IMG/VR virus record: IMGVR_UViG_3300027896_000022
Span: 1-17,953 of that record
Direction: 5' to 3' (one strand)
DNA length: 17,953 nucleotides
Source of the DNA: a virus
Lineage: Duplodnaviria > Heunggongvirae > Uroviricota > Caudoviricetes
Shown: one piece after another, positions 1,418 through 17,953 of the stretch
Layout of the letters: each line of letters opens with the position of its first letter
How positions within the stretch are numbered: position 1 is the first letter of the stretch
The notes under the pieces: model-generated
The model's input: the letters and a program-made list of their open reading frames with translations, nothing else
The model's database searches: none
Told to the model about the DNA's origin: nothing
Program-made: the position numbers and the translations under genes

Positions 1418-1446
1418 TATATTAATTAACTAATTAACTAAATTTT

Positions 1447-1671
1447 ATGAAAAATTTTTTTAAAAAATTTCTAAAATTAATAGACGGTAAAAAAACTGTT
1501 ATTTTAGGAATTTTAAGCGTTATTGTCTTGTATTTACTTCAGGTAGATTTTATTTCAGCACCTCTTGCCTATGCCTTAGAAGGTATTTTAACTGTTTTAG
1601 GTGGTGGAGCTTCCTATGCAACAAAACGTTTTGCTAATAAAGAAAATGTCGCTAAGGTAGAAGTTAAGTAA
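1447..1671 (+). CDS. Holin-like small membrane protein (2 predicted TM helices)
   Basis: 74 aa. Basic N-terminus, GKKT motif followed by hydrophobic helix VILGILSVIVLYLL, second helix LAYALEGILTVLGGGASY, basic C-terminal tail. Confidence 0.65.
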   Translation: MKNFFKKFLKLIDGKKTVILGILSVIVLYLLQVDFISAPLAYALEGILTVLGGGASYATKRFANKENVAKVEVK

Positions 1672-1672
1672 T

Positions 1673-1837
1673 ACGCATCATTCCTTTTGGGAAAATTATT
1701 TTAAGGTGTTTTGGAACATTGTTGAATTTGGTGTTAAAACAATTTTGACTTTTTGTCTAGCTGTAATCTTGACAGTAATTCTGTATGGATTAGTACTTTT
1801 ATCTTTAATAATTTTTTCAAAATTAACTTTTATGTAA
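1673..1837 (+). CDS. Putative small hydrophobic membrane protein (ACG start at 1673, or GTG at 1706)
   Basis: A stop-free frame fills the gap between 1671 and 1842: (T/M)HHSFWENYFKVFWNIVEFGVKTILTFCLAVILTVILYGLVLLSLIIFSKLTFM*. There is no upstream ATG in frame without crossing TAG1658. Not in the ORF track. Confidence 0.4.
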   Translation, partial: THHSFWENYFKVFWNIVEFGVKTILTFCLAVILTVILYGLVLLSLIIFSKLTFM

Positions 1838-1841
1838 ATCT

Positions 1842-2144
1842 ATGAGCGAGCAAGAAGTATGTAATCAACCAATCAGAGATATTGTAATAGAATTACGGAC
1901 TGAAGTTCGTAATATTCGCTATGATATCGCAGATTTAAAAAGTGGGACTACAGAAAGAATCAATACTCTTGAAAAAGATAAAGCAGATAGGGTAGTAGTA
2001 GATGCCGTGCAAAAGAAAATCGATGAAGATGTAGAAGTTAGAATTAGAAAATTAGAAAATAATGTAATTAAGATTTTTTCTTATGCTACTTTGGCTGGAG
2101 CTATAATTAGCATTCTTGCCGAATGGGGACTAAAAAAAATATGA
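1842..2144 (+). CDS. Coiled-coil protein with a C-terminal TM anchor (lysis-cassette/holin-like)
   Basis: 100 aa. Heptad-like charged helices followed by IFSYATLAGAIISILAEWGL and a KKI tail, an architecture common next to phage lysis genes. Confidence 0.6.
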   Translation: MSEQEVCNQPIRDIVIELRTEVRNIRYDIADLKSGTTERINTLEKDKADRVVVDAVQKKIDEDVEVRIRKLENNVIKIFSYATLAGAIISILAEWGLKKI

Positions 2145-2233
2145 AGATATTTAATGATTTTTATTGGATAGTAATCCTTATAGTTTGCATAGAAATGGCT
2201 GTATTCTTTTATTTTATTTCAAGAATAAATTAA
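2141..2233 (+). CDS. 30-aa single-TM peptide
   Basis: MKIFNDFYWIVILIVCIEMAVFFYFISRIN*. It starts in an ATGA overlap with the upstream stop and ends 4 nt before the next ATG. Not in the ORF track. Confidence 0.55.
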   Translation: MKIFNDFYWIVILIVCIEMAVFFYFISRIN

Positions 2234-2237
2234 ATAT

Positions 2238-3125
2238 ATGGATTGGAAACCCTTTAAAACAACCCCAAATAAGATCCAATTTATAAATGCCGGATATGGC
2301 AACGCATTTGACACTTCATTTTGCGTCACCTTTTCAATCCTGAAATGTTTGCAGACAATTTTTAATCAGATGATCAGCTTAGGTCTTATTCCACAGGCCT
2401 ACCTTGACTGGTTAAAATTGAATAATTACCTTAATAATCTTGGACAACTTGATTTTTCACCTCGTTTCACGGGGACGATGGCAGATACAACCATTTATGG
2501 AAATTCTCAGTGGAACGTTATGAATGCCATTATTGCCTATGGACTGATACCAGAAAAAACATATCCAAATCAGGCAAACAGTTGGACGGAATATGCCGAT
2601 GAGACAAAAATAACTCAAGAAATGAAAGATTTAGGGCAGGAATTCTTAAAAAGATTTCTCTTAGATTCTAAAGAGGAATCATATTTTTCTGCCTTAGACA
2701 AGTCACCTCTAGACGGTATTGTAAGATTTGCCGATGGCAATGGAATACTTTCACCTGTCGGGCCAACTAATCATGGCATAATGGTTGAAAATGATGGTGA
2801 TGATTTGACTTATGTTAATATTAGTGATTCTTATTGGCAAGAAGAAAAAAAATATGATAGAAATAAAGTTTCTTTTCTTAAATCATTTATTATAACGCCT
2901 AAAACTATGACGCCAGAACAAATAGCCGCATTTATTAAAAACAATGACTTAAAATGGGTAAGAAATAAAGACAATGGTTCATTCGGCAGAATTATGCAAG
3001 GACAATTAAAGACATTTACTACCAATGATAGGGCGGTAGACTGTTTGCTTGATGACGCAGTCAGAAAAAATGGCATTCAAATTTCAAATGTAGAATGGTT
3101 AGCTTTGCCAAAAGTTGCTTTTTAA
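2238..3125 (+). CDS. Papain-like (clan CA, C1-type) cysteine peptidase with a short C-terminal domain; candidate endolysin
   Basis: C29 in DTSFCVTFS (cf. papain CGSCWAFS), DFSPRF, YGLIPEKTYP (cf. GxxxExxYP), H179 in TNHGI (cf. NHAV), D197 in ISDSY (cf. NSW). No signal peptide. Confidence 0.75.
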   Translation: MDWKPFKTTPNKIQFINAGYGNAFDTSFCVTFSILKCLQTIFNQMISLGLIPQAYLDWLKLNNYLNNLGQLDFSPRFTGTMADTTIYGNSQWNVMNAIIAYGLIPEKTYPNQANSWTEYADETKITQEMKDLGQEFLKRFLLDSKEESYFSALDKSPLDGIVRFADGNGILSPVGPTNHGIMVENDGDDLTYVNISDSYWQEEKKYDRNKVSFLKSFIITPKTMTPEQIAAFIKNNDLKWVRNKDNGSFGRIMQGQLKTFTTNDRAVDCLLDDAVRKNGIQISNVEWLALPKVAF

Positions 3126-3144
3126 TAATGTATTTTAAAGAAAG

Positions 3145-3173
3145 AAGACAAAAACCAAAAAATATGGTATAAT
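3145..3173 (+). promoter_or_regulatory. Sigma70-type promoter with extended -10
   Basis: AAGACA (3145-3150, 4/6 match to TTGACA), 17-bp spacer, TG at 3165-3166, perfect TATAAT at 3168-3173, in the intergenic gap upstream of the tail operon. Confidence 0.75.
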
Positions 3174-3197
3174 AAGGGAAAATTGAACAATAAAAAT

Positions 3198-3473
3198 ATG
3201 TTTGGAAACAATTTAATGGCTACCATTCTTTTGGGAGGAAAAAAAATCTTTGGACAAGGATATGTTCAAACAAATTCCGTTGAAGAATTGAATATTTTTA
3301 CCCCCGGGGAAGCCACTGAAGGTGAAACGGCAGGCAGAGATGCCTTCCCCAGTGGTGATTTAATAGAAATAGTAGATATTGGAGGAAATATCTGGGATAG
3401 CAATGATGATAATGGCGGTGATATGACAGGATCAGAAAACGTTGATGGAAGTATGTCAAGTGACAGTGATTAA
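3198..3473 (+). CDS. Small acidic protein of unknown function (probable virion-associated)
   Basis: The ORF track starts at TTG3183, but ATG3198 (after AATAAAAAT) matches the start context of other genes. Hydrophobic N-terminus MFGNNLMATILLGG, then a D/E/G/S-rich tail. Confidence 0.65.
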   Translation: MFGNNLMATILLGGKKIFGQGYVQTNSVEELNIFTPGEATEGETAGRDAFPSGDLIEIVDIGGNIWDSNDDNGGDMTGSENVDGSMSSDSD

Positions 3474-3496
3474 GTTTATTAAATTTTTATAAGTTT

Positions 3497-5224
3497 ATGA
3501 GCATAAATCTTCGCGCCGACAACAGGTCTATTATAAAGGATGCAAAATATTCCTATTTAATAGATAACTATTCTTCTAATGTGTCAACTATGACTGTGGC
3601 TAATCCTGAAGGATTTTTCCATAATAGTTATATTTTAGTAGGAAATATTGGATCAGAAAATACTGAAATGTTGCAGCTTCAGAAAGTTGATCCAGTCTCT
3701 GGCGCTTTGACTTTTATAAACTTCACCGCAATGGCTGTTGGTAGTGGAATAGCTACGGCAATTATAAATAATGGCGGAACAGGATATTCATTGGGAGAGA
3801 TTTTAACTGTAGTTCAAACTGGTGGTGCAACCGGTTCTGTTCGCGTTGCTACCATTGGTGGCGGTGGTGTTATTACAAGTGTTACAGTAGACCAACCTGG
3901 TTATGGTTATTCTGTAGCCAATGGAGTGGCTACCACAGGAGGTGGAAGCAATACTGCCACTATAGATATTTTGACTTTAACCACACCGACTACTGCTACA
4001 AGCATTCTTTTTGGAACAAATCAATTTTTTATTGCCGGCCAGCCAGTAGAAGTTTTCTCACCTGCTGGTGTTAGCCGCGGGACAGGAACAGTTTTAACCA
4101 GCAGCAATGCCACAAGTTCTGTTATGACTTTATCTGGTGCAGGTATAGCTGGAACTGTTGCTGGAGACACGGTAGTTGTTAGTGATCTTACTAAATTTGC
4201 TCATTCTGAAAGCACTAAAGTAGTTGTCCTACAATATAATAAAGTTAGATTTTTTAGGACAGACACCCCAGCGGTTCCTAATGTTGCCCCATATATGGCT
4301 ATTAATGAAAATCAGGATAAGTCTATTACCCAGACAACAAAGTCAGTGATGGGAGCGGTTAGGACAACCACATATAATCAATCAGATGATCCTTCTTCTG
4401 TAACAACTGTTGATTTTACCCCGCCTATTGTTTCTACGGGTGCATTGGCATTAACTGTTCCTTTGCCAATTCAGGTTAATGATTTTTATACCACCTTTAT
4501 TGATTCTATTAATTCCACCGGTTATGGTTGGTTCTCTTTTTACAATTCAACAACTGCTTTATATTCTCCAATTTCAAATCCGATTCCTTATTCAGGATTT
4601 CCGCAAAATACAGTGAAAAAAGTGTTTGAATCTTTTAATAGTTCAATGAATACTAAAGAATTAAAGCTGATTACCTCAGAAGATCGCTTCAATTGGCTGA
4701 ATGAAGGAGTATCCTACATGGTTAATGAATTGAACATGGTTAACTATGAATATTTCGCCACCGAGGAATTGCAATTGAATTTAAAGGCTGGAATAGCAAA
4801 ATATTTATTGCCTCAGGATTTTTCAGCTCTTTTATTCATTAATGATTCAAAGGGCATAAAAATAAATGCTTATGATGCCACTTTTGCCAGGGCTAATGTG
4901 GCTTCCATAATGCAATATGCGGTTAGAGGTAAATTTATAATATTTTATCCGCCGCCGCAATTAGATGACACTGCAACTTTAGCTTATCTGAAAAGTTCAT
5001 CAGTTTTATCAAAATTAGATGATGTTATTGACTTGCCAGATAATGCTTATTATGCCATTAAAGATTTTATGCGGTTTAGGGCTTATCAAAAATTACAAAA
5101 TGCTGCCGAGTCTCAAAATTCTTTTATTTTCTTCAGCAAGATGGTAGAAAGCATGAAGATTCATGCTATAAGAAGAGATGATGGTCTTGATAGTTGGTCT
5201 ATTGCTGATACAGCTAATACTTAA
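3497..5224 (+). CDS. Head-tail adaptor-like protein with a large N-terminal modular extension
   Basis: The C-terminal ~205 aa carry WLNEG, LKAGIAKYLLPQDF, YAVRGKFIIFYPPP and DVIDLPDNAYYAIKDFMRFRAY, a pattern seen in podovirus adaptor (T7 gp11/P22 gp4-like) proteins. It lies directly before a nozzle-like gene. Confidence 0.7.
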   Translation: MSINLRADNRSIIKDAKYSYLIDNYSSNVSTMTVANPEGFFHNSYILVGNIGSENTEMLQLQKVDPVSGALTFINFTAMAVGSGIATAIINNGGTGYSLGEILTVVQTGGATGSVRVATIGGGGVITSVTVDQPGYGYSVANGVATTGGGSNTATIDILTLTTPTTATSILFGTNQFFIAGQPVEVFSPAGVSRGTGTVLTSSNATSSVMTLSGAGIAGTVAGDTVVVSDLTKFAHSESTKVVVLQYNKVRFFRTDTPAVPNVAPYMAINENQDKSITQTTKSVMGAVRTTTYNQSDDPSSVTTVDFTPPIVSTGALALTVPLPIQVNDFYTTFIDSINSTGYGWFSFYNSTTALYSPISNPIPYSGFPQNTVKKVFESFNSSMNTKELKLITSEDRFNWLNEGVSYMVNELNMVNYEYFATEELQLNLKAGIAKYLLPQDFSALLFINDSKGIKINAYDATFARANVASIMQYAVRGKFIIFYPPPQLDDTATLAYLKSSSVLSKLDDVIDLPDNAYYAIKDFMRFRAYQKLQNAAESQNSFIFFSKMVESMKIHAIRRDDGLDSWSIADTANT

Positions 5225-5229
5225 TTCTA

Positions 5230-7062
5230 ATGATTCAAAAGAATGTCACAACTAAACTTATTCAATATTTTGATGGAGTAAATGCTCTGACTGCTTCTAA
5301 TATTGCTAAACCTCAGGAATTAGTACATTCTGAAAATCTTAGATCACCAGCGATTGGAACGATAGAAAAACGGGAAGGAATGAGTGTTGTCGGAACAGCT
5401 GCTGGTGCCGCACCATTTACGGCAACTACTAATTACGGTTTGTTTTATTTTAATAATACCTTTAATAAAGGATTATATAGGGTGAGTACTGTTAGTGGAG
5501 TTACTTCAATTTATTATTTAAATAATTCAAATGTTTGGACAGCTTTAACGGGGTTAGGAACAGCTTTTACGCCTAATGATATAATTAGCACCTGTTTAGC
5601 TGAAAATAATTTATATTTTGTTAATAAGGGGATTACTTCAAGATGCATTCTTGGGTCAGATGGTACTACTGTTCAGGACTCAACTTTAGCTACTTTATCT
5701 ACCTCAAATTTAACAAATTGTCCGAAAGCAAATATCGTAAATTACTACAAAGGCCGTTTATATGTAGCAGATTATACTTATGGATCCGTTGATTATCCCA
5801 ATACTATTTTAATGTCTTCTCCGCAACTTGGAATAATATCTTTAGTAAATAATGATACAGCAGTTGGACAAACAGTTGTTCCAGTTACTGATGCTAAATA
5901 TTTTATTGTAGGAGAAACATTTGAATTTAGGAGAGGAGCAACCTCTCTTGGGACAGCAACTATTGCTAGTGTACAGGAAACAACCATAACCTTAACAGCC
6001 CCGCTTGGTTTTGCCGTGCTGGCTTCTGATGAAATGTGGGTTAATGGCACTTATTCTGGGAAAAAAGTTTTTAGATGGGTTACAAATCCTACAGAAATGG
6101 GTGTTAACGCCAAAAATTATGATTCTTTTAAAATGTCGACAACGACAGATAATAATAATGAAGCAATTACCGTAATGACCAATATTGGTAATACGATGCT
6201 TATAGCGACAGCCAGTAGCATGGCTATTTGGAACAGTTATGTTCTTCAAAATATTGACTTTGGAATTGGTTGTTGCTCTAAGAGAGCCCATGTAAAAACC
6301 AGCGGTTTTCTTTATTTCTTACATTATACTGGTATTTACGTAACGCAGGGTGCGGCACCTCAATATATTTCCAGTAAAGTTGAACCCTACATTCAAGGAG
6401 CGACAAAAAGTGGCTTAGAGAATGCTACAGCTGGAAAGAAAGGAAGAAATTTATTTTTCTGCATCGGTGATGTTACTTTAAAAAATCCTGATGGATCAAT
6501 AGATAAAATTTTAAAAGATGTTTGTCTAGAATATAGTATTACTCAGCAGAACTGGTATATTCACACGAATTGGAAAATGACAAAAATGGTTACTTATTTT
6601 TCTACTGACAATCCTGATCGTTTAGTTGGAACTTCCACCTTTACTGATGCTTCAGTTGTTGAATTATTAGCTGATGGTAAAAGTACAGATGTTTCTTCAG
6701 CTACAATAGCAACATCAGAAATTCCATTTAGGGCAGATACTCCAAATATAATGCTTGGAACATCTTTCCAATTTATTAGTTATCCTGCAGAAATTGACGT
6801 TGAGATGGAAAGAGGACAAGGAATGAAATGTTTTTGTTCTTTAGACAGGGCCGATTGGTATGAATTAGAAGGTGAGGCTGGCAAGGGATTAACCATTTTT
6901 AAAGTTACTAGCAAAGATGGTGATACGTCAAAACCGCCAAGATGCCGTAATATAAGATTGTCTTTCAGGCATAATGGAAAACAACTTTGTAAAATATCTA
7001 AAATTGCTATTCTTTCAATAATGATGCCAGAAGAAGAACAGTTTAAGGAAGACGGTAAATAA
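5230..7062 (+). CDS. Tail nozzle / DNA-stabilization protein (P22 gp10 / T7 gp12-like, beta-propeller)
   Basis: 610 aa. N-terminal FDGVN...E...SEN...G.IEKREG motif, beta-rich blades (YYKGRLYVA, GFLYFL..TGIYV), C-terminal RNIRLSF...KISKI. It follows the adaptor-like gene. Confidence 0.72.
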   Translation: MIQKNVTTKLIQYFDGVNALTASNIAKPQELVHSENLRSPAIGTIEKREGMSVVGTAAGAAPFTATTNYGLFYFNNTFNKGLYRVSTVSGVTSIYYLNNSNVWTALTGLGTAFTPNDIISTCLAENNLYFVNKGITSRCILGSDGTTVQDSTLATLSTSNLTNCPKANIVNYYKGRLYVADYTYGSVDYPNTILMSSPQLGIISLVNNDTAVGQTVVPVTDAKYFIVGETFEFRRGATSLGTATIASVQETTITLTAPLGFAVLASDEMWVNGTYSGKKVFRWVTNPTEMGVNAKNYDSFKMSTTTDNNNEAITVMTNIGNTMLIATASSMAIWNSYVLQNIDFGIGCCSKRAHVKTSGFLYFLHYTGIYVTQGAAPQYISSKVEPYIQGATKSGLENATAGKKGRNLFFCIGDVTLKNPDGSIDKILKDVCLEYSITQQNWYIHTNWKMTKMVTYFSTDNPDRLVGTSTFTDASVVELLADGKSTDVSSATIATSEIPFRADTPNIMLGTSFQFISYPAEIDVEMERGQGMKCFCSLDRADWYELEGEAGKGLTIFKVTSKDGDTSKPPRCRNIRLSFRHNGKQLCKISKIAILSIMMPEEEQFKEDGK

Positions 7063-7066
7063 AAAT

Positions 7067-8710
7067 ATGGCTGATTTAACATATGAAACTATTTCTAACC
7101 CATATAATCCTGAACTTCTTAGGACGGATTCTACTGTAGCAACAAATGATGTTCCTGATGTGTCGCAAGAAGAGGGAGGCAGAACGATAAAAAGCGGTTC
7201 TACTCTTACTGATGCTTGGATTGATACTTGGATTAAAAGTACAAATTATGAACCTAAAAAAAGAGGATTTCTTCTTGATGGTATAAAAGGTTATTTTGAA
7301 GCTGTTGATGCTTTCTTCTCTGGAACAGTCATTGCTTTAGCTGGTCAATTTGGGTCAGCTGATAATTATTGGAAAATTGGAGCCAATGGAATAACTGCGG
7401 TGGCTACTACTGGAGATGTCATGATAAATTATGGGAAGGCTGATTTCGGTCAAGATGGTGTAAATGGATTTATTTTAGGATATGATTATTCAGCTAGTGT
7501 ACCTAAATTTGAGATAGGAAGTTCAGCCATTAAAATTTTTAAATATGATGGTACTGATCTTCTGATGATTGGTGGAACCATTAAGACAAATGTGACAGGG
7601 GCCAGAGTTGAAATAACGGGTAATGATGAATATTTTTATGATGCTAGTACGGGTGGAGGCGGAACGATAGTTGGAAATACAGCTTCTATTTATTTTCTTA
7701 GAACAGATGGGGCAAATGGCACATTTCATATTCAAAAAAGAAAAAGTACAATTAGCAACGCTGGAAATGTTGTTGAATTCTTTTATGATGATATTCCTGC
7801 TGGTGGAGTAAGAAATTATATCTTTTTAGGACTTAAAGGTGATTTAGGAAGTAATGTTTCAGATTTTAAGTCTCACGTTATTGGAATAACAGCACGTGAT
7901 TTAATTCAAATTTATTCATCTTCTATTGCTAATCATCCTGGTTGGGGTACTCCAGCGGGCCCGGAAGTTGAAGTAATTGGTTCAAGTTGGGATGTTGGAC
8001 AACCGAATGCCGGAGGATCAAGACTTCTTTTATCAGGAATAGAAACAACTGTTCCGGCAGGTTGGGCGACAGGAGGATCATTTGTTGCTATTGGAGTGCA
8101 ACAACCTGCAGGTTTTAACGTTTCTCTTCTTGTTGATGATACTGCAGGATGGGCTGGAAATGATTTTTTACCACTATATTCAGGTTCTTATGACTCAGGA
8201 AATTCTGGTAATTATTGGCGAAATGTATATACAGAAGCAGTCCAGATAGTAAAAGCAGGTCATGCAACTAAATATTTGACCATGAATGGTGGTGGTGGAT
8301 TAGAAGTAAATGCTGATTTTTATGTAGGAGGTACTTTAAGCAAGGCTGCAGGAACATTCAAAATTGATCATCCCTTAAAACCAGATACGCATTATTTGCA
8401 GCATTCTTTTGCTGAATCTCCAGATATGCTTAATCTTTATAGGGGTAAAGGTGAAATAATTAACGGAGAATGCTTCATTCAAATGCCCGACTGGTTTATA
8501 CCATTGAATGGAACTAATAAATATGATTTTGATTATCAACTTACAAGTATTGGACAGCAAAATAATCTATGGGTTAAAGAAGAAATGTCTAAAAATGGCA
8601 ACGTGATATTTGCTGGAGAAAAGAATGGAAAATTTTCTTATTTAATTTCTGGAATTAGACATGATAAGTATGCTGAAGAAAATAGAATTCAGGTAGAAAA
8701 AATAAAATAA
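7067..8710 (+). CDS. Tail fibre/spike-like protein with an SKxxGxFKIDHP...ESP C-terminal domain
   Basis: Gly-rich beta-strand repeats, TGARVEI, and a P..SGSYDSG.S..YWRNVY fibre-type motif. The C-terminus LSKAAGTFKIDHPL..HYLQHSFAESPDMLNLYRG...PDWF..LN..YQLT..G is a domain recurrent at the ends of fibre/adhesin proteins. Confidence 0.7.
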   Translation: MADLTYETISNPYNPELLRTDSTVATNDVPDVSQEEGGRTIKSGSTLTDAWIDTWIKSTNYEPKKRGFLLDGIKGYFEAVDAFFSGTVIALAGQFGSADNYWKIGANGITAVATTGDVMINYGKADFGQDGVNGFILGYDYSASVPKFEIGSSAIKIFKYDGTDLLMIGGTIKTNVTGARVEITGNDEYFYDASTGGGGTIVGNTASIYFLRTDGANGTFHIQKRKSTISNAGNVVEFFYDDIPAGGVRNYIFLGLKGDLGSNVSDFKSHVIGITARDLIQIYSSSIANHPGWGTPAGPEVEVIGSSWDVGQPNAGGSRLLLSGIETTVPAGWATGGSFVAIGVQQPAGFNVSLLVDDTAGWAGNDFLPLYSGSYDSGNSGNYWRNVYTEAVQIVKAGHATKYLTMNGGGGLEVNADFYVGGTLSKAAGTFKIDHPLKPDTHYLQHSFAESPDMLNLYRGKGEIINGECFIQMPDWFIPLNGTNKYDFDYQLTSIGQQNNLWVKEEMSKNGNVIFAGEKNGKFSYLISGIRHDKYAEENRIQVEKIK

Positions 8711-8728
8711 TTAAATAATTTCAACATT

Positions 8729-8902
8729 ATGAACAATGAAGAAAAAAAAATTAATTCTACAGAAGAGCAAAATCAAAAACCTAAAATGAGACGTCTTCTC
8801 ATTGAAACTGATGGAAATAAAATTGTAATAGTAACTAATGAAATGACAGGATTATTGGAATTAAAAGCTGTTCTGACAGAATTAATAACCAATTTAAGGT
8901 AA
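8729..8902 (+). CDS. 57-aa hypothetical protein (possible fibre assembly helper)
   Basis: MNNEEKKINSTEEQNQKPKMRRLLIETDGNKIVIVTNEMTGLLELKAVLTELITNLR*. It fills the 8710-8931 gap with an AT-rich start context. Not in the ORF track; the function is a positional guess. Confidence 0.65.
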   Translation: MNNEEKKINSTEEQNQKPKMRRLLIETDGNKIVIVTNEMTGLLELKAVLTELITNLR

Positions 8903-8930
8903 TTTGTTATTAATTTTTATATAAAATCAT

Positions 8931-11402
8931 ATGCCTACCAAGCAAAGGAAACCAAGTCCGGCTGAACGCTGGGGAACATTAGTAAATGGTCGTCTTACTG
9001 ACAGACAAATTTTTGACTTGTTTGATGAGTTTGGTATGGCAAAAAGGCTTCAAACCAGAGGGGATTATGACTGGGCAAGACATAATCTGCCCAATATACC
9101 AGAAGAAATGAAGAAAATCTTAAAGATTGAATTAGATAAAGAAAATTCTGCAAGAAAGGAATCAGCTAAAGCTGTTAAAAGTGAGGGTGGCCAAGGGGGC
9201 CCAGCAACAACTACAATTTATTGGAAAGACGGCTCAACTAATGCTGTTCCAACTTCAGAGCTTTCCTATTGGCAAAATCAAGGCTGGTCAACCACTAAAC
9301 CAACTACCTCATCAGCATCTGCAGCATCTGCAGCATCTGTAGTACCTGCATCTTCCCCTACTATAACTTCTAACCCTAACCTTGCTGTTTCTGCCTCTTG
9401 GTCAACTTCACCAAGTATTTCTTTAGTTAAATTTACCAGTGATCCAAACGGAGCTGATCCAGGCGATGCTTCTACGGTTTGGTATGTCGATCATTCAACT
9501 AATACATTTAGACCTATAATGTCAATGCAGGCTTTACAGGATATGTATCCTGATGCCGCTCATTTTCAGGCTGCTATAAATTCTATAAGTGTAGTTAGTC
9601 CGCAAGAATTGCAACCAGGCGGTCAATTAGCTAATTTTACAGATCTTGGTTCAGATTATGGAATTTATGAAAAACAGCAAGCAAAAAAATTAGATTATAA
9701 TCCCATTGATATTCAGGGGGCTTATGGTAAGACTAGAAGCCAAGACGCGGATACATCCGGGTTGCAAATACTTAATAGTTTTATAAATTTTCTTAGTTCT
9801 AATAATTCAGGAATAGATAATTCTTATTTAACTAAAATTAAAAATGATCCAGCCACAATGGCTTTATATGTCAATGCCTTAGCTTATGGCGGTTATACTC
9901 CAGACGATATTTATAGTGATATAAAAAGAAAACAATTGGTTGATAGCGGAAATACTGGGTTATCCAATGTTGCTGTTATTAGTCCAAATATTTCTAAGAC
10001 TGAATATGAAAATACTACTGCCGGACAACAAGCCTCTTCTTTACCAATGCTAACCGCACCTAATCAGATAGGAAATGTCAGCAGGGAAGTTTGGAATTCA
10101 CCGGCAGCTCAACTAAATGATGATTATTATAAATTGACAGATCCTTCTTCTTATGATCCATCTTCTCAATCATTTAAAGATGCTATGGATGCTATAAAGC
10201 CTGATTTTTATGACCATGTTTTGCAGTCTTTATCAGCTCAGACTGAAGCTGATAAATCTGTAGCTGATAGCCAGTGGAAAGATTATATTGACAATCTTGA
10301 AAAAAGTTACGGTTATAGATTTAGCGATAATGCTTTAACTGCCTGGCAACAATTGGAAACTCTTCAAAAATACGCTGCAGAATATGGAATTGCTGGTTCT
10401 GGTATTGAACAAGAGCAACAAGATCAGGCATTGAGACAAACTAGAGAACAAAATAGACGTTTAGCAGAGCAAAAAGGCATTACTGAGAATACTCAAGAGG
10501 CAAATCAGGCCAGAGCGGCATATTCTTCTGATCAAATTAAAAAATTAAATGATGAAGATCAAGCTGCAGGTTTGCCTAGAGATCAATGGCGTTCTGTTAA
10601 ATGGGGTTTGGCACCAAATACGGCAACTGATCAAGCAACGTTTATTTCTAATTTTAGATCTACCCATCCTGATTTAGCTAATGTTTCTGACGCAGAAATT
10701 AAAGCTAAATATTACGATCCTATTTATGATGAAAATGGAAATTATAGAAGCACTCTTTATCAGAATCAATTTAATGCTACCTTTCAAACGACTTACGGAT
10801 ATGATCCAAATACTATCCAGTCATATGTTGATAAAGATACTAACAATACTGTTAATAGCATAGATTCTTATAAACAAAATGAGGTAGAAAAAGCAAGATT
10901 AGCGACAGAGGAAGCTCAGCAAAAAGATATAACTAAAGAGGAAAGTGGAGATTATTGGAACCCATTAAAAGGTGCTACTGGCCCCATAGATTACTCCAGA
11001 AATGCTGGTGCTACCGGTCCAATTGTTCCTCCTGCCGCACAAACTACAACACCAACCACTCCGACAGGATACACTGGAGCTTTATCTACTTTTACTCCAA
11101 AAACTGGAACATCCTATATTCCTGATGTGGCTTCAATGAAAAATTATACTAATATTTATAAAGATACTACACCAGGAAGTACCAAGCTTTATGGTACTTT
11201 AAAGACTGCAACTCCGACAGTTACTCCCACAATTACCACTCCAAAAGTAACAGTCCCTACCAATTTAACAAGTGCAGCAAAGCCTGCGACTACTTCTGTT
11301 CCTACTGGAGCTACTTTAATTTCTGGTCCTTCTGGTTTAACTGGTTTAACCGAAAAACAAATTTATCGTGATCCTAATTCTAACAAGATTTATAAATTAT
11401 AG
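8931..11402 (+). CDS. Large putative internal-virion/ejection protein 1 (823 aa)
   Basis: Long ORF downstream of the tail genes with S/T/P/A-rich linkers, a Q/E/A-rich coiled-coil (EQEQQDQALRQTREQNRRLAEQK) and small repeated modules. The function is inferred from position and composition. Confidence 0.6.
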   Translation: MPTKQRKPSPAERWGTLVNGRLTDRQIFDLFDEFGMAKRLQTRGDYDWARHNLPNIPEEMKKILKIELDKENSARKESAKAVKSEGGQGGPATTTIYWKDGSTNAVPTSELSYWQNQGWSTTKPTTSSASAASAASVVPASSPTITSNPNLAVSASWSTSPSISLVKFTSDPNGADPGDASTVWYVDHSTNTFRPIMSMQALQDMYPDAAHFQAAINSISVVSPQELQPGGQLANFTDLGSDYGIYEKQQAKKLDYNPIDIQGAYGKTRSQDADTSGLQILNSFINFLSSNNSGIDNSYLTKIKNDPATMALYVNALAYGGYTPDDIYSDIKRKQLVDSGNTGLSNVAVISPNISKTEYENTTAGQQASSLPMLTAPNQIGNVSREVWNSPAAQLNDDYYKLTDPSSYDPSSQSFKDAMDAIKPDFYDHVLQSLSAQTEADKSVADSQWKDYIDNLEKSYGYRFSDNALTAWQQLETLQKYAAEYGIAGSGIEQEQQDQALRQTREQNRRLAEQKGITENTQEANQARAAYSSDQIKKLNDEDQAAGLPRDQWRSVKWGLAPNTATDQATFISNFRSTHPDLANVSDAEIKAKYYDPIYDENGNYRSTLYQNQFNATFQTTYGYDPNTIQSYVDKDTNNTVNSIDSYKQNEVEKARLATEEAQQKDITKEESGDYWNPLKGATGPIDYSRNAGATGPIVPPAAQTTTPTTPTGYTGALSTFTPKTGTSYIPDVASMKNYTNIYKDTTPGSTKLYGTLKTATPTVTPTITTPKVTVPTNLTSAAKPATTSVPTGATLISGPSGLTGLTEKQIYRDPNSNKIYKL
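9313..9339 (+). repeat. CAGCATCTG x3 (encodes the SASAASAAS linker)
   Basis: Three perfect 9-bp copies read directly. Confidence 0.9.
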
Positions 11403-11419
11403 ACTGGTAAATAAATTCT

Positions 11420-12124
11420 ATGGATACTACAAATAATCTTCCAACAACTCTTAGGCCAGTTTTTCTTAATCCTGAAACGCAGAGTGCTTATGATGCTTCA
11501 AACCCTGTAGCAGATTATCAGCAATCTGATACTGAACCGGTTGCAGACGACGCTCAATCTGCAGATGGAACTCAAACTGATAGTTCAGGTTTTTCTCCAT
11601 ATTTATCTGCTTTTTATAAGGCTCAAAAAAATTATGTTCCAAAAACTTCAACAAATATTTCAACTCCAACTTCAACCCAAATTCCGTCTCAATTATATAA
11701 AAATCTTAACACAAAATTTAATAGTCTTGGCGCAATAACTACCGAATATGGAGATACTACAAGATATGAAAAGTTTCATCCAGGCATTGATATTGCTAAT
11801 AAAGCTGGCACTCCAATCCCAGCATTTGTCCCCGGCGTGGTTACTTCTGCCACTACAGGGCATAAACATGGAGAAAAAGGTTTTGGTAATAGCGTAGTTG
11901 TTACTGACGCTAATGGTGATAGGCATAGATACAGCCATCTCCAACAGGTTTATGTTAAAATAGGAGAACCAGTTGGTTCTGGGCAGGAGTTAGCAACTAT
12001 GGGAGATACAGGTTCTACCTATTCTCCGTCAGGAAAAGGAACTGGAACTCATTTAGATTACAGAATTGTTGATGCTTATTCTAAAGCAGTAAATCCATAT
12101 TCTTATTTAAAAAATTCTATATAA
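11420..12124 (+). CDS. M23-family metallopeptidase with a disordered N-terminal extension; putative virion-associated lysin
   Basis: H120-PGI-D124 (HxxxD), GFGNSVVV, RYSH173L, GQELATMGDTG, GTH211LD213Y (HxH site as HxD), VNPYSYL. It lies between large ejection-like genes. Confidence 0.92.
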   Translation: MDTTNNLPTTLRPVFLNPETQSAYDASNPVADYQQSDTEPVADDAQSADGTQTDSSGFSPYLSAFYKAQKNYVPKTSTNISTPTSTQIPSQLYKNLNTKFNSLGAITTEYGDTTRYEKFHPGIDIANKAGTPIPAFVPGVVTSATTGHKHGEKGFGNSVVVTDANGDRHRYSHLQQVYVKIGEPVGSGQELATMGDTGSTYSPSGKGTGTHLDYRIVDAYSKAVNPYSYLKNSI

Positions 12125-12129
12125 AATAT

Positions 12130-14715
12130 ATGCAACCTGATAAAAAAGCCAAAGTCTTTGCAATGAAATCCATAATGAACAATCCCAAGCTTTCAAAAGT
12201 CTTGAGTGATGGTTATAATTCTCCAATTGGAAGCACCAAAAGAGACCAGGCTAAATCAGTTGTTTCTATTTTAAAAAGACTTGGTTCTTCAGGCAATCCT
12301 GGAATAAATGTTTCTTTTACTCCTCCAGTTAAGCAAAATCCAAGGAAGCAAGCCTATAATGATATTTATCAAAGAGTTTATGGCAATCAAGGTGGATCCC
12401 CGGATGGTCAAGGAGGACCAACAGATAATGCTAATCCTTTTCTTTCTACTGCAAATAATCCTTTAGTACCATCGTTTATTAAAAGAGCTCCAGAACCAGC
12501 AAATAATTTTTCTTCAAAAATATCTACAACAACTTCAGCTTCTACCGCCCCAATGATTAGTGGAACTGCAGCTCCTGCTGCTCCTACCGCTTGGACAGGA
12601 ACTTCATATAAACCAGGAGAAGGAATAATTCCATTTTTAGGAAAAAACGTAATTCCATTAACTGAATACGTAACAGGAAAAACCTTAGAACAAGCAAAAA
12701 AAAATAAAGATGCTACTTTACAGGCTGTTGCCGGAGCAATTTTAGGAACTAGTGCTATTGGAGAAATGGGTTTAGGAACTTTAATGGGTACAAGCACTGG
12801 AAAACCAGTTCCTTTTGGTGAAACAAGTTCAATGCAAATTTATAATCAATTATTTCCAGCTAAAGTACCTACTGCTTTAGCTCCTTCGCCTACTTTGCCT
12901 AAAGCTCCTGGAACATCAATTGCAGCAACTACTGGGGCTACAGGCCCTGCTGTCACTGGAACTCCCGGGACAATCGTTCAAACTTCTGGCAATTCTTATA
13001 CTTACATAAATCGTGATGGAACTATTCATAAAGGTACTTTGGGTGATAATTATGTGGATAATACAACTGCTATTACCGCTGGTACAACTGGACCTGCCCC
13101 AACTGATGTAAACCTTCTTGCTGGTACTCAATATGAAAGCACTTGGGCAACTTTAACTCCTGAACAAAAAAAACAAATAGCAGATTCTCTTGGTGCAGCT
13201 CCTTCTGATACGACTGTTACCAGTACGGCAACAACTCCCGTAGATACTGGCACGGTATCAGGAACTAATCCTTTTGCCGGAACGTCATATGAATCAGCTT
13301 GGAATTCTTTACCTGATAATGTAAAACAAGCAGCCTTAACTGCTCCTACGCCTGGAGCTTTTGCAGATGCTATTATGTCCAGTCCCTCTGCTTTAGCAAC
13401 TTTAGCGCCTCAATATCTTGAAGAACTTAGAGCAATGCATCCTAGAGTTCCTGACGCTCAATTGCCATTAGCCTCTGGGCTTAATGGCCAAATTGATGAT
13501 TTAAAAAATAGATTAGCTGAAGAAAATCAATTGACAACATTAGGCAACGAATATCAGAAAATGATTACTAGTGGCAATACTCTTCAACCTGATTTAACCA
13601 GTTATATCAAAGGTCGTGATACCTATATCAAAGATGTTGATAACATGATTAATCAGGTTAAGACTAATATGGCTACTGGGATGCACGATCCAGCTACAAT
13701 GGCCGCTAATAATGGTTATATTGATTATCTTTCAGTCTTGAAAGGACGCCAGAATAATCGTTATATTGATCTTTTGCAGATGTCTGTCACTTCTCATGAC
13801 AATCAAATGAAGACAATAACTAATGCCTATAATAATGCCAAAAAGAATTATGATGACGAATTGGCGTCTGGACAGAAAATGACCACTGATAGATATAATC
13901 AAGTATATGGTGATCTTACTAATCTTTATAATCTTGTTCAAGGCGCTCCTGCTGCAGCTCAAGATGCCGAATTGAAGAAACAACAAGTATTAAATGCTCA
14001 ATATGATAATGCTAAATTAAAACTTGATCTTGGAACAACTACTACTAATGACTTCATGAAGGAGGCAATGGTTTATGATAGTCAGTTATTAGATAAAACA
14101 ACTGATACTACAACTGGAAAATCTTACAATACTTTTATGCCTGAAGTAAATTTGTACAATGAAGCTGCGGCAGCTTTAGGTTCAGGCAAAAGTGTAAATT
14201 CTTTATTGTATATCATTAGTGAAGGAATTGCTGCTGCAAAAACTACTTCTGAGGTAGAATCTGTTAAAGCAAAAATTAATTCATTTCTTGCCAGTGGAGG
14301 AGAAGCTTTATTAGCTCAATATGGATATACTCCAACTGATTCAAGCGGAAATTCTGTCCCTCTTTCTACAGTATTTGATACTGCTATGCAAGGTCCTAAA
14401 ATTACAGCCTATGAATCAGATCTTAAAATTGCCACAGTGCCTGCTCTTCAAAAACTTTTAAATTATTTAGTTAAAATTGATCCTAAAAAAATAGCAAGCA
14501 AAAAGGCTGAATATGACAAAAATGCTGCTCAATATGGGATAACAGATACTTCTTTATCTGATGCTATTTGGAATTACTATACTGGAACTGCCTTAAAGCA
14601 ATTTGGACCTTCTGCGGCAACTGTTGCAGGCAGAAAAAGCATGTTCTCATTATTAGATCCTAATAGTACTACGGGTTTTTCTGATTTGGCTAAATCATTA
14701 GCTGCTTCTAACTAA
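12130..14715 (+). CDS. Large putative internal-virion/ejection protein 2 (861 aa)
   Basis: Basic N-terminus, long T/A/P/G-rich region, internal repeat, coiled-coil segments (LNGQIDDLKNRLAEENQL; AQDAELKKQQVLNAQYDNAKLKL). The function is positional inference. Confidence 0.6.
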   Translation: MQPDKKAKVFAMKSIMNNPKLSKVLSDGYNSPIGSTKRDQAKSVVSILKRLGSSGNPGINVSFTPPVKQNPRKQAYNDIYQRVYGNQGGSPDGQGGPTDNANPFLSTANNPLVPSFIKRAPEPANNFSSKISTTTSASTAPMISGTAAPAAPTAWTGTSYKPGEGIIPFLGKNVIPLTEYVTGKTLEQAKKNKDATLQAVAGAILGTSAIGEMGLGTLMGTSTGKPVPFGETSSMQIYNQLFPAKVPTALAPSPTLPKAPGTSIAATTGATGPAVTGTPGTIVQTSGNSYTYINRDGTIHKGTLGDNYVDNTTAITAGTTGPAPTDVNLLAGTQYESTWATLTPEQKKQIADSLGAAPSDTTVTSTATTPVDTGTVSGTNPFAGTSYESAWNSLPDNVKQAALTAPTPGAFADAIMSSPSALATLAPQYLEELRAMHPRVPDAQLPLASGLNGQIDDLKNRLAEENQLTTLGNEYQKMITSGNTLQPDLTSYIKGRDTYIKDVDNMINQVKTNMATGMHDPATMAANNGYIDYLSVLKGRQNNRYIDLLQMSVTSHDNQMKTITNAYNNAKKNYDDELASGQKMTTDRYNQVYGDLTNLYNLVQGAPAAAQDAELKKQQVLNAQYDNAKLKLDLGTTTTNDFMKEAMVYDSQLLDKTTDTTTGKSYNTFMPEVNLYNEAAAALGSGKSVNSLLYIISEGIAAAKTTSEVESVKAKINSFLASGGEALLAQYGYTPTDSSGNSVPLSTVFDTAMQGPKITAYESDLKIATVPALQKLLNYLVKIDPKKIASKKAEYDKNAAQYGITDTSLSDAIWNYYTGTALKQFGPSAATVAGRKSMFSLLDPNSTTGFSDLAKSLAASN

Positions 14716-14726
14716 TTTTTGATTAT

Positions 14727-15062
14727 ATGGCTACAATTTATAAAAAACCTTTTAGTCCAATTCCTTCCTTTTTATCCGACAGGGCTAGGGCAAGGCTTGC
14801 CGCCAGAGTAAAAAATATTCCTATTAACAGTTATTCACCATTGAATCAATATTTGCCGAATAAAAGTTATAGTTCTAGCACTTACGGTTTCAACCAATAT
14901 TCACCTGTTAGCCAATATTCATCTTTAAGTAATTATAGTATTACTCCTGGAGGTTATTTACCGGGAGATTCTTCTTCTGCCCCCAGTTCTTTAACGCCAC
15001 CTACAATTTCTTCACCGTCTCAGCAAGACACTTTGCCAGATATGGCACAACCTAATTTTTAG
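14727..15062 (+). CDS. Small S/P/Y/N/Q-rich low-complexity protein
   Basis: 111 aa. It fits tightly between its neighbours with an AT-rich start context, and has a basic N-terminus plus (N/S)xYS repeats. Confidence 0.65.
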   Translation: MATIYKKPFSPIPSFLSDRARARLAARVKNIPINSYSPLNQYLPNKSYSSSTYGFNQYSPVSQYSSLSNYSITPGGYLPGDSSSAPSSLTPPTISSPSQQDTLPDMAQPNF

Positions 15063-15070
15063 ATTAATAT

Positions 15071-17953
15071 ATGGCTATAAAATACGCTGAAAATACCACT
15101 TACGGACAACCGCAAACGGCTACTTCATCTATTAATATGCCTGCTTTAATTGCGGCAGCTAAAGCCAGAGGGGCACAAACATCTCAAATACCTACAACTG
15201 CACCTACAACTGCACCTACAACACCAGCACCTCTTACGACTACTTATCCATCTTTGGCTAATTCTTTTTTAGCAAATTATAAACCGGCGGCTCCTTCGGC
15301 GCCTTTTGTGTTTAAATTAGCAAACGTTGGGCCAACAACTACACTTACTCCAGAGCAGCAACAAGCTGCAATCTTGCCATATGTTAATACTGGAATAGCT
15401 GTCAGTGATTATGCCGGCCAAGCAGTCCCTTCAGGAACAACTTTAGGACAATATCAGACAGTTACAGGAAAACCGTATAGTGAAATTACCGAACCAAGCA
15501 CTAAACCATATCTTGAAGCGGGTAAATATCTTGCACCATCTGAAGTCACGCCTGATGCTGTCTTCAAAACTCTCATGGTTCCTGGGATTACTCCCACGGA
15601 AGGTGGCCAATACTTGATGGAACCTAGCAAGCCTGGAGCAGGAATTGCTACTACCAGGGCCCCATTAAATTACAATGAAAATGCACTTATTCGTCAAGGA
15701 TTAGATCCGTCCCTATTTCAAATTGATCATATTATTCCTCTTTGGGTTGGAGGTGCAGACGACATGTCCAATAAGGAAATTTTGGATAATTATACTCATA
15801 ACATAAAATCAAAAGTTCAGGCTGTCCCCTATACTTTAATGGCTAATGGCTTAATTAGCCAAAGAGAAGCTTTAGCAATGGCCTCTGAATGGAAAACTAA
15901 AGCAAGCACATGGGGAACTGATAATATTCCAGAACCTGCAACAAGTGGACTTCTTGATGTCAAGGTAGCTCAAAATATAGCTAAGGAATGGACTAAAGCC
16001 CCAGCTGTTACTTGGAAATCATTTTTGCAAAGTCTTCCTGAGGCCGGACAACAGATTTATGGTGTTGCCGCCAATGTAGCACAAACACTTTTGCCTAAAA
16101 GTGCTAATACTGCAGCCCCAAGAGAATTTATTAAAGGTTTTGCCAGTGCTATTCCAACCTATGATTTAGCCATGCCGGAATTAGCTAAAACTGCTGATTA
16201 TGGCGACAAAACAGCTAATGTTGCTGGTAATATTTCTCATGTTCTTGGTGCAATTACTGGCAATGTAGTTACATTTAGTTGGACATACAAATTAGCTTTA
16301 CAGGCCTTATCTAAAGTTGGTATTAAATGGGCTGCTAAAGAATTAACAGGAGAAGCTTTAAAAACCGCAGGAACGGCATTAGCCGAAACAGCAGGTAAAG
16401 ATTTGTTAAAACAAACTCCTGCAGAGATTTTAGGTGCTGCGGCAAAGACAAGAGCTATAACAGCCCCGGCAGAAAGTGTATTTACAGGATTTGTTCAAGA
16501 ACCTATTACAGCTGCCAAACAAGCATTGGCAGCAAAAACTGGAACTGAGGTAGCGGGAGCTATCGGAAAAACTGGTTTTAAAACAGCTATTAAAGGTATT
16601 GCTCCTAAAATTGGATTAGCTAATGTTGCTGCCGCTACTCTTCCTAAAGCTGCTTTACAAGGAGTTATATTTAGTGGCTATAGACAGTTGCAGCAAATGC
16701 CAGTAGAAGAAAGAGCAAAAAAAGCCGCTCTTGATTTTGCTTATGGTTTAGTTGGTATAGGAAAAACTGGATATAACGTAGGAGGTTATGCAAAAATTGC
16801 GGCTCCAGCTTTTGCCATTTCTTTAATGGAAGGTCTTTCTTTTAATAATTCCTTTGCCAACGCCATGTCTTCTGCCTTAATTAATACGGGCACGATGCTT
16901 GGGATGCATGGAATGGGTAATATAGGATATGCAACTGCAATTGCTGGTGAAAAGCCAGGAGGAATATTAACTTATCAAGAACCTTCTGCGGCAGGAGTTA
17001 AAGGTATTGCTAAGGCTCAAGAAGAAGCTCATGTAAATGCGGCAGCTGTTGTTGCCAATAAATATCGGCAAGATCTTTATAGTCATGTTCAGACAGATTT
17101 AAAAACAGGTGCTTTTAAACCTGAACAAGTTAGGCCAGAATATCAACAGCATTTAACTTATGAGAATACGACTGATCCAAAAACATTGCAGGCTCAAAAC
17201 AATCTTTTAGATTCATATATCCGTTGGAAAGGGCACATGGAAGGTTGGACTCCTGATTATACCGCTCTGCAAAGAGCAAAACTTTTAGTTAGCGGCAAAG
17301 CTTTAGTGCATTTTGATATGTCTCCTCTTGCCAGAAAAAAAGCTCAATTGAATGATTGGCAATCTATTGCTCAAAAATTTATTAGAGACAAAAATCCTGA
17401 TCAACCTACTGTCCCGACAAGAGTTAAGAATTTAGCTGCTAATACCATTCTTCGAAATGGCCATGAAGAACCACCTACAGTTGAAGATACTTATCCGCTT
17501 TCTACTTCTGGCAAATTACAAGAAGAATTTATTGGTACGGGAAATAATAAAACGGTAGAAAATCAAAAAATTGTTCATAACGTTATTGATGGCGTTGATA
17601 AATATATTAAAGAAGGAGATGTTGAAGGAACCATCCCTGGAACCAAATTGCCTAATGGTCGTTATTTAGTTAATGGGTTTGCCAGTCATGAACCTGATTC
17701 GGGAAGTTATCATGTAAATGAAGGTGTTAATCCGGAAAATGCTGTTAGGATTTATGTTCCAGATTCAACACATGGCTTATCTCCTATTGGTTACATTGCT
17801 TCTGAAGGACGGATTGGAAATCCGGAAGGTTTATCGTATGAAAATAGTTTTAATGCCAATTTGGCAAAAGCATCAGGAAAGGATTTAAGTAAAATGTCAA
17901 AACAAGACATGATTAATGCCAGAATGAATAATCCTGATGTTAATAATAATCTT
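15071..17953 (+). CDS. 3'-truncated giant putative ejection/polyvalent protein (>=961 aa) with an HNH motif and a HIRAN-like motif
   Basis: ATG15071 (after GATTAATAT) begins MAIKYAENTTYGQPQ... and the frame is open to the window end (2883 nt = 961 codons). It contains IDHIIPLWVGGADDMSN...H (15722-15799). Absent from the ORF track, presumably because no stop lies in the window. Confidence 0.9.
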   Translation, partial: MAIKYAENTTYGQPQTATSSINMPALIAAAKARGAQTSQIPTTAPTTAPTTPAPLTTTYPSLANSFLANYKPAAPSAPFVFKLANVGPTTTLTPEQQQAAILPYVNTGIAVSDYAGQAVPSGTTLGQYQTVTGKPYSEITEPSTKPYLEAGKYLAPSEVTPDAVFKTLMVPGITPTEGGQYLMEPSKPGAGIATTRAPLNYNENALIRQGLDPSLFQIDHIIPLWVGGADDMSNKEILDNYTHNIKSKVQAVPYTLMANGLISQREALAMASEWKTKASTWGTDNIPEPATSGLLDVKVAQNIAKEWTKAPAVTWKSFLQSLPEAGQQIYGVAANVAQTLLPKSANTAAPREFIKGFASAIPTYDLAMPELAKTADYGDKTANVAGNISHVLGAITGNVVTFSWTYKLALQALSKVGIKWAAKELTGEALKTAGTALAETAGKDLLKQTPAEILGAAAKTRAITAPAESVFTGFVQEPITAAKQALAAKTGTEVAGAIGKTGFKTAIKGIAPKIGLANVAAATLPKAALQGVIFSGYRQLQQMPVEERAKKAALDFAYGLVGIGKTGYNVGGYAKIAAPAFAISLMEGLSFNNSFANAMSSALINTGTMLGMHGMGNIGYATAIAGEKPGGILTYQEPSAAGVKGIAKAQEEAHVNAAAVVANKYRQDLYSHVQTDLKTGAFKPEQVRPEYQQHLTYENTTDPKTLQAQNNLLDSYIRWKGHMEGWTPDYTALQRAKLLVSGKALVHFDMSPLARKKAQLNDWQSIAQKFIRDKNPDQPTVPTRVKNLAANTILRNGHEEPPTVEDTYPLSTSGKLQEEFIGTGNNKTVENQKIVHNVIDGVDKYIKEGDVEGTIPGTKLPNGRYLVNGFASHEPDSGSYHVNEGVNPENAVRIYVPDSTHGLSPIGYIASEGRIGNPEGLSYENSFNANLAKASGKDLSKMSKQDMINARMNNPDVNNNL
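15191..15222 (+). repeat. 12-bp tandem repeat CCTACAACTGCA x2.7 (PTTA linker)
   Basis: Read directly; encodes PTTAPTTAPTT. Confidence 0.85.

Follow-up and report, generated by a model that had tools for sequence, protein, structure and literature searches.

A conserved HNH domain without zinc ligands in a giant putative ejection protein of an uncultured freshwater phage

We analyzed a stretch of 17,953 nucleotides (nt), referred to here as the window (positions 1 to 17,953 of IMG/VR virus record IMGVR_UViG_3300027896_000022), from an uncultured freshwater virus of the class Caudoviricetes, the genome of which is a single contig of 88,184 bp. Toward the end of the window, a giant open reading frame (ORF) starts at position 15071 and continues beyond the window end to genome position 22063, encoding a protein of 2,330 amino acids (aa) with an HNH domain in its N-terminal part. 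A sequence-only reading of the window had marked 15722-15892 as an HNH domain with D219-H220, N234, and H243 in HNH spacing, in frame and intact within this gene but lacking the CxxC zinc ligands, and each of these points was borne out on translation: the coordinates and residue numbers are exact, the interval is in frame within the ORF from 15071 and encodes aa 218-274 (I218 to W274), and the whole 2,330-aa protein contains no Cys. The features that make up the domain are as follows.

15071..17953, + strand: 5′ part of the giant ORF, aa 1-961, which runs on past the window to 22063; no Cys
15593..15970, + strand: segment modelled as HNH-like, aa 175-300; the fold is confident from about aa 199 onward
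15671..15694, + strand: upstream helix, aa 201-208, packing on the core and sitting where a classical HNH has its first CxxC
15716..15730, + strand: β-strand 1, F216-H220, with D219 (putative metal ligand) and H220 (putative general base) as its last two residues
15770..15787, + strand: N234 (the structural Asn of HNH) and then β-strand 2, K235-D239, from the model and conservation
15788..15844, + strand: core α-helix, aa 240-258, bearing H243 (putative second metal ligand) and the invariant K246
15860..15913, + strand: trailing helical extension, aa 264-281, in which A267 and W274 are nearly invariant, shared with small bacterial HNH-like proteins

Taken by itself, the sequence of the window gave only weak matches to PHROG and PDB entries, and a single-sequence scan of IMG/VR found no close relatives, while alignment-based scans did recover them. 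The relatives gathered comprised 13 giant proteins from a protein index and 35 loci from IMG/VR and metagenomes, and 26 domain segments taken from these relatives were aligned (alignment A2). All 26 aligned members matched the Pfam HNH family PF01844, with a best E value of 2e-6. The family profile searched against the PDB matched HNH domains at E values of 4.9e-6 to 1e-5, with ZRANB3 (4.9e-6) first and Cas8f-HNH (about 9e-6) next; these were followed by EcoKMcrA, the HNH domain of Cas9, a maturase of a group II intron, and pyocin AP41. In the hhalign comparison with a canonical CxxC HNH protein from a Nitrosospira contig, the E value was 3e-14, with 49% identity over 37 columns. NCBIfam yielded weak matches of the Cas9/IscB HNH type only, and the ESM Atlas gave weak leads only, with scores of ≤0.85. 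A chance match to the motif was considered and rejected on the basis of the family profile, PF01844, and hhalign matches to HNH.

The structure of the domain was then predicted with AlphaFold2 on alignment A2, giving a model with a canonical ββα core, a predicted local distance difference test score (pLDDT) of 83.4, and a predicted template modelling score (pTM) of 0.74. The folded domain exceeds the interval marked from the sequence and spans about aa 199-300 (nt 15665-15970); its trailing extension was modelled as two helices (264-272 and 274-281), and D239 and T242 occupy, in the alignment, the positions of the second CxxC of a canonical HNH. When the model was used as the query against 48,161 representative PDB chains, the four best matches were all HNH enzymes, and the top structural neighbors were the Gme nickase (4h9d; Z 4.5), the HNH protein of phage GVE2 (5h0o; Z 4.2), and Cas8-HNH (8w1p; Z 3.9), while ZRANB3 (5mkw) gave a Z of 3.7 and a root mean square deviation (rmsd) of 2.7 Å over 62 residues. 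The Foldseek list for the PDB was headed and dominated by HNH domains at E values of at least 0.3. In the viral structure set BFVD, every named entry on the Foldseek list was an HNH-type or homing endonuclease or an endonuclease VII, the best pairs having template modelling (TM) scores of 0.49-0.52 with a probability of 1.0. For so small a fold the scores of the predicted structure are individually modest, and the searches agree on HNH. The segment is a genuine HNH domain (His-Me finger, ββα-metal) that possesses the full catalytic set and no zinc finger. Members of the zinc-finger subgroup have four Cys ligands in two CxxC pairs, none of which is present here; the domain belongs to the HNH superfamily, outside that subgroup and outside the homing endonucleases.

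To place the domain among its relatives, a profile search was run over 1.84 billion representatives, in which the counts refer to sequence clusters at 50% identity. This search returned 138 clusters at E≤1e-30 and 231 at E≤1e-10, and the best 150 of its 2,453 matches, which were inspected, were almost all proteins of 1,300-2,700 aa with the domain at aa ~60-300. Residue conservation was counted over 158 representatives. As listed below, the catalytic set, D219 (D/E), H220, N234, H243 (H or N), and K246, is kept in 97-100% of them, and several further positions of the core and of the trailing helices are conserved to a similar degree.

D219: D in 151 and E in 7 of 158
H220: 156/158
P223: 157/158
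G227: 157/158
G228: 158/158
D230: D in 144 and N in 12 of 158
N234: 158/158
H243: H in 125 and N in 28 of 158 (H or N in 153)
K246: 158/158
L256: 157/158
A267: 157/158
W274: 154/158

Position 243 alternates between His and Asn, as is usual for HNH/HNN domains. Of the 35 columns that are invariant when the 13 homologues are aligned over their whole length, 16 fall within aa 217-274, a stretch that makes up 2.5% of the protein length, and the HNH domain is, as judged from these alignments, the most conserved part of the giant protein. The sequence-only reading had made its assignment depend on a ββα-metal fold in the model and on conservation of the catalytic residues among homologues, and had proposed to check whether homologues keep or lack the domain. 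The model has the ββα fold, with HNH nucleases as its nearest structures, the residues are conserved as listed, and all of the relatives keep the domain.

These counts bear directly on the question of whether the domain cuts DNA at all. HNH folds are sometimes reused for binding, and the domain could be a non-catalytic DNA-binding or structural module that holds the leading DNA end or forms part of the conduit. Such a role would be in keeping with the loss of the zinc site and the addition of extra helices, and an active DNase would presumably be dangerous next to a packaged genome. However, residues needed only for catalysis are near-invariant across very divergent proteins (H220 in 156/158, D or E at 219 in 158, and H or N at 243 in 153), and active HNH/HNN enzymes classically show just such an alternation as that at 243, so we regard a purely non-catalytic module as quite unlikely. 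The completeness of the catalytic set, together with the strong purifying selection on it, makes an active nuclease with one metal ion the simplest interpretation. Because one HNH active site cleaves one strand, as the closest solved relatives do, nicking is likelier than double-strand cutting, unless oligomers are formed.

The distribution of the domain was also examined from the other end of the protein. A search seeded only with C-terminal aa 1400-2100 found 15 further giants, and 15/15 carry the N-terminal HNH domain (E 1e-27 to 1e-51). A word-indexed search revealed no short free-standing form; in the short profile matches (234-850 aa, among the matches listed), the domain without exception lies at the N-terminal offset typical of the family, and contig ends have probably truncated these ORFs. 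Because all of the relatives found through the C terminus possess the domain and its N-terminal position is constant, the alignments argue that it is ancestral in the family and fixed in position, rather than a sporadic homing-endonuclease insertion. Phage structural modules often contain HNH homing endonucleases, and one Pfam HNH_repeat match lies elsewhere in the same genome; nevertheless, a homing-endonuclease gene or intein-like insertion that happens to be in frame is highly improbable, given that the domain occupies the same N-terminal position in all 158 relatives without any presence/absence variation, that Pfam reveals none of the accessory DNA-binding modules of the homing type, that the word-indexed search gave no short free-standing form, and that the domain is the best conserved part of the protein. 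To the sequence-only reading the domain had looked domesticated rather than like a free-standing homing endonuclease. The second half of that statement stands, as the domain is neither free-standing nor sporadic, whereas the first half carries the further, hypothetical implication of descent from a selfish endonuclease. As a side observation, 19 distinct stretches of P0154, an unrelated-looking giant of 4,060 aa, matched HNH-profile positions 52-94; this protein probably consists of repeats that resemble the helix region in composition.

The lack of zinc ligands was then viewed against the cysteine content of the locus. With zero Cys in its 2,330 aa, the protein cannot contain a CxxC pair, and 123/135 giant relatives likewise lack any Cys, the mean content being 0.0075%. 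In the genome analyzed, the run of upstream ORFs at 8931-15062 is Cys-free together with the giant ORF, versus 0.79% Cys across the ORFs of the genome, and the same Cys-free block was found in 11 related loci (among L006-L037). Thus, the absence of zinc ligands from the domain belongs to an avoidance of cysteine across the whole block and is no peculiarity of the domain. The flanking helices (aa 201-208 and 264-281) probably take over the stabilization of the core from the lost zinc site, and the avoidance of cysteine may reflect passage of the protein through the tail and the oxidizing periplasm. On the sequence evidence, the domain would be a natural example of an HNH core without a zinc finger, apparently due to protein-wide cysteine avoidance, and it would link cysteine avoidance in putative ejected proteins to a visible remodelling of an enzyme fold. 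It is also a compact, cysteine-free nickase candidate for biochemistry.

Beyond the window, the giant protein contains a DxDGD motif at aa 1774-1778, within a region at aa ~1394-2033 (L001:5250-7169). In a six-sequence alignment of this region, D381, D383, and D385 (alignment A3 numbering) are invariant. The 640-residue model of the region was poor as a whole (pLDDT 53.6), with a confident match for residues 278-416 only, and this confident part is a double-psi β-barrel (DPBB), which matched designed DPBBs with a Z of 12.6 and the catalytic barrels of RNA polymerase largest subunits with a Z of 10-11. The barrel also matched gp96 of phage P23-45 (Z 10.3), QDE-1 (Z 8.1), and the AR9 and phiKZ polymerases, and in Foldseek it gave 29 matches at E≤1e-3, almost all of which were RNA polymerase largest subunits. 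Profiles of the whole protein and of the polymerase region found no polymerase in the PDB by sequence; the fold search alone found one. According to the model, the C-terminal part carries a DPBB barrel of the RNA polymerase type with the DxDGD motif.

This polymerase region is not a general property of the family. It was found in 34/136 giant relatives, with 102/136 lacking it; the polymerase profile had no match anywhere in two near-complete relative genomes (L007, 102 kb, and L008, 89.5 kb), and the C-terminal ~1,000 aa of polymerase-less giants gave no Pfam match. A tree built from the N-terminal 290 aa groups the proteins that bear the polymerase (15 changes versus 38 when shuffled), without uniting them in one clade, and places the protein of the window in a well-supported set of 12, all of which have the polymerase. 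Some relatives from the polymerase-bearing clade have an additional C-terminal domain, His_Phos_1 (E about 1e-20) or RNase H (E 3e-12), namely, P0155, P0090, P0162 (aa ~2110-2275), and P0163 (aa 2387-2545), and the giants therefore act as modular carriers of nucleic-acid enzymes. Since the HNH domain is universal and the polymerase optional, the role of the domain is not tied to the polymerase.

This last point matters for a reading in which the active nuclease works on the DNA of the phage itself. The ejection complex would hold the nuclease in place while it nicked or cut the entering genome, which could process a genome end, relieve torsion, or expose a single-stranded template for the fused polymerase. 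The protein is likely anchored at the DNA entry site, where the nearest DNA would be that of the phage, the solved proteins nearest to the domain in sequence (ZRANB3, Cas8f-HNH, Cas9 HNH, and the Gme nickase) cut specific structures or single strands, and the domain is fused to an RNA polymerase barrel in the clade of the window. Yet the absence of the polymerase region from 102/136 giant relatives, and the lack of any polymerase match in the two near-complete relative genomes, mean that the role cannot depend on that polymerase, and we consider action on the phage's own DNA unlikely.

The remaining features of the giant gene and its surroundings are listed below.

15071..15106, + strand: extreme N-terminal peptide MAIKYAENTTYG, aa 1-12; family consensus MANLPENTxYG/N
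15146..15592, + strand: Pro/Thr/Ala-rich linker, aa ~26-174, poorly conserved and variable
15971..16420, + strand: conserved post-HNH region, aa 301-450, with W307, P323, P342, E352, K355, and G356 invariant in 13 homologues
16211..16990, + strand: Ala/Gly-rich, moderately hydrophobic region, aa 381-640, with a maximum Kyte-Doolittle value of 1.28
8931..15062, + strand: four Cys-free upstream ORFs (823 aa; M23 peptidase, 234 aa; 861 aa; 111 aa), which form a putative ejection-protein block with the giant ORF

The core common to the whole family is aa ~150-450, comprising the HNH domain and a conserved region of about 130 aa. In the N-terminal peptide, M1, N8, and Y11 are invariant in the alignment of 13 homologues, a regular expression for the peptide matched 89/145 relatives, and the peptide is kept at the same position in otherwise very divergent giants (relatives P0003-P0062); it is possibly a signal for incorporation into the virion or capsid or for docking to the portal. 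The region at aa 381-640 may interact with a membrane. The giant gene comes after an SU10-type adaptor, tail genes, and the M23 peptidase, at the end of the tail/structural block, and in related loci a Cys-free ORF of 700-860 aa always precedes it. A terminase-associated HNH was rejected, the gene lying away from the packaging genes and at the end of the tail/ejection block. Searches of the PDB by sequence with the neighboring ORFs of 861, 823, and 610 aa gave no match, and a tblastn search of 50,697 GenBank phage records with the whole protein found none either.

Several observations concern the genome at large. Both contig ends (window 1-626 and genome 85399-88184) lie inside one Gly-Tyr-Thr collagen-like repeat gene, so that the genome is probably closed or circularly permuted, with the cut that gave the contig falling within the Gly-Tyr-Thr repeat. 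Among sequencing runs, one DNA run, a freshwater metagenome that is probably the source, was listed as containing the sequence, and no RNA run was. A replication module at genome 26977-41044 (L002) encodes RuvC, an Mre11-like phosphoesterase, an SNF2 helicase, a primase-DnaB helicase fusion, and RecA, the last with a very strong Pfam match (E 6e-102). The ORF with the single Pfam match to HNH_repeat, which is associated with homing endonucleases, lies at genome 33949-34785.

Taking the locus as a whole, we propose that the HNH domain is a metal-dependent DNA nickase or nuclease that is delivered at infection and most likely acts on host or rival DNA, a reading to which we assign a probability of roughly 55%. 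In the proposed mechanism, H220 would serve as the general base and activate water, a single divalent metal ion would be bound by D219 and by the residue at 243 (His here, Asn in some relatives), N234 would brace the hairpin, and the invariant K246 would probably contact a phosphate of the DNA backbone. The giant protein would travel inside the capsid and enter the host together with the DNA, as T7 gp16 or the N4/crAss-type virion polymerases do, so that a single-site nickase/nuclease would be delivered at the very start of infection; its likeliest targets would be the DNA of the host or of a rival, with the entering phage genome as the alternative. Gene position, protein size, cysteine avoidance, the fused polymerase, and the analogy to T7 gp16, N4 gp50, and crAss-like phages all suggest packaging and ejection.

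A number of points weigh against a delivered nuclease. The window's own sequence scored below the PF01844 cut-off of 21.4 bits, at 14.1 bits with the first 961 aa and 17.7 bits with the isolated domain, and the structural Z-scores (≤4.5) and Foldseek PDB E values (≥0.3) are weak when taken singly. The grounds for packaging in the virion (position, size, cysteine avoidance, and analogy) are all indirect, the neighboring large ORFs matched no known ejection protein, and hydropathy revealed no strong classical transmembrane helix in aa 381-640. In addition, a non-specific nuclease beside the packaged genome would need to be inactivated, and a non-exhaustive Pfam search of ten ORFs of the replication module found no DNA-hypermodification gene that could explain self-protection.

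A broader proposal can be made, although we hold it only tentatively and think it more apt to be wrong than right as a whole. The zinc-free HNH domain would be the universal "warhead" of a widespread, so far unrecognized class of giant ejection proteins, devoid of cysteine and encoded by uncultured phages of ~90-100 kb, and would be fired with or ahead of the genome against host or rival DNA or to process the phage's own, and the polymerase would be an optional addition to an older nuclease scaffold. If this were true, a DNA-cutting "warhead" would represent an infection step that we have not found described for any ejection protein. Injected proteins decide the first seconds of infection, and few of their enzymatic activities are known; these include cell-wall hydrolases, RNA polymerases, ADP-ribosyltransferases, methylase-helicases, and ParB-like DNases. 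The HNH domain is invariant across at least 138 clusters of giant putative ejection proteins and better conserved than the fused RNA polymerase, which suggests that a delivered nuclease belongs to the core of one injection strategy.

Compared with the classical zinc-finger HNH proteins of PF01844, represented by a 141-aa protein of Nitrosospira multiformis (NZ_FOCT01000019; L041), the phage domain exhibits a near-identical core, DHIxPLWAGGxDxxxNxQxL..H..KTK, and the same ββα topology. Unlike the classical protein, however, it lacks both CxxC pairs and possesses a C-terminal helical extension, and it is embedded in 2,330 aa, whereas the classical HNH is a small free-standing protein. The sequence-only reading had likened the trailing helix to that of a bacterial HNH subfamily, and such a subfamily was indeed found and aligns through that helix: a scan of species-representative genomes recovered small bacterial HNH-like proteins at L070:7818-8345, L067:1-363, and L064:1975-2505, for which hhalign against the phage profile gave E values of 2.5e-6, 2.7e-6, and 3.4e-8 over 61-70 columns. 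They share the stretch from "GLDP...(Y/F)(E/Q)(L/I)DHIIPL.LGG" through the "G.L.L.EAQ..I..DW" helix and are likewise devoid of the two CxxC pairs. They differ from the phage domain in being about 120-180 aa long and in retaining a few cysteines, and L070, a 176-aa ORF in a Rhodocyclales metagenome-assembled genome with a hydrophobic, signal-like N terminus, has a non-His residue at the position aligned with H243. Pfam and NCBIfam did not capture these proteins above cut-off, and they are probably an unnamed exported subfamily. By sequence, the core of the phage domain is closer to the classical zinc-finger HNH than to these bacterial proteins.

Among solved structures, the zinc-less HNH modules of Cas9/IscB and of the type I-F Cas8f-HNH fusion (8ydb, 8w1p, and 9sjn), together with the HNH domain of ZRANB3 (5mkw), were the best profile matches (E 5e-6 to 1e-5). 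The Cas8f-HNH pairs superimposed with an rmsd of 2.6-3.0 Å over 52-53 aligned columns, and the aligned Cas8f-HNH stretch is likewise Cys-free. All of these are single-active-site nuclease modules of larger machines. Relative to the Cas-type and ZRANB3 domains, the phage domain has no RNA-guided context and different flanking helices, and identity is only 19-26%.

At the level of the whole protein, there is a parallel with the injected multi-enzyme "polyvalent proteins" of phages and plasmids, which include P1 DarB/DdrB and N4 gp50-like proteins (Iyer, Burroughs, Anand, de Souza & Aravind 2017; PMC5512222). The phage giant resembles these in being a giant late/structural protein that joins at least two unrelated enzyme domains, HNH and the DxDGD RNA polymerase barrel, to which relatives add a histidine phosphatase or RNase H. 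In the survey of polyvalent proteins, the DNases are of the ParB-like type only, other DNase domains neither displace nor accompany them, and HNH is mentioned only in another context (PMC5512222); in the phage giant, by contrast, the DNase is an HNH domain and is the invariant module. The ejected virion RNA polymerases (phi14:2 gp66, the crAss-like two-barrel type; Thermus phage P23-45 gp96, PDB 8h2m; and N4 gp50) are similar in size and gene position and possess a DPBB with DxDGD, but no sequence similarity of the giant to any GenBank phage or to a polymerase chain of the PDB was detected, and only about a quarter of the HNH giants carry the polymerase. By analogy with T7 gp16 (PMC8954989), an N-terminal enzyme domain on the largest protein of the putative ejection block may be followed by a membrane-interacting region; the enzyme of T7 gp16 is a lytic transglycosylase that acts on the cell wall, whereas that of the phage giant has a nuclease fold and the wall-degrading M23 peptidase is encoded by a separate gene.

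Neither the podovirus ejection-protein review (PMC8954989) nor the N4 ejectosome paper of 2026 (PMC13434306) contains the words "nuclease" or "HNH", and our search of the literature for HNH or nuclease domains in ejection, internal virion, and virion-polymerase proteins brought up only free-standing homing HNH genes located between internal-virion genes. What sets the family apart from these known kinds, on computational evidence alone, is thus a zinc-less HNH domain that invariably forms the head module of these giant proteins of putative ejection function.

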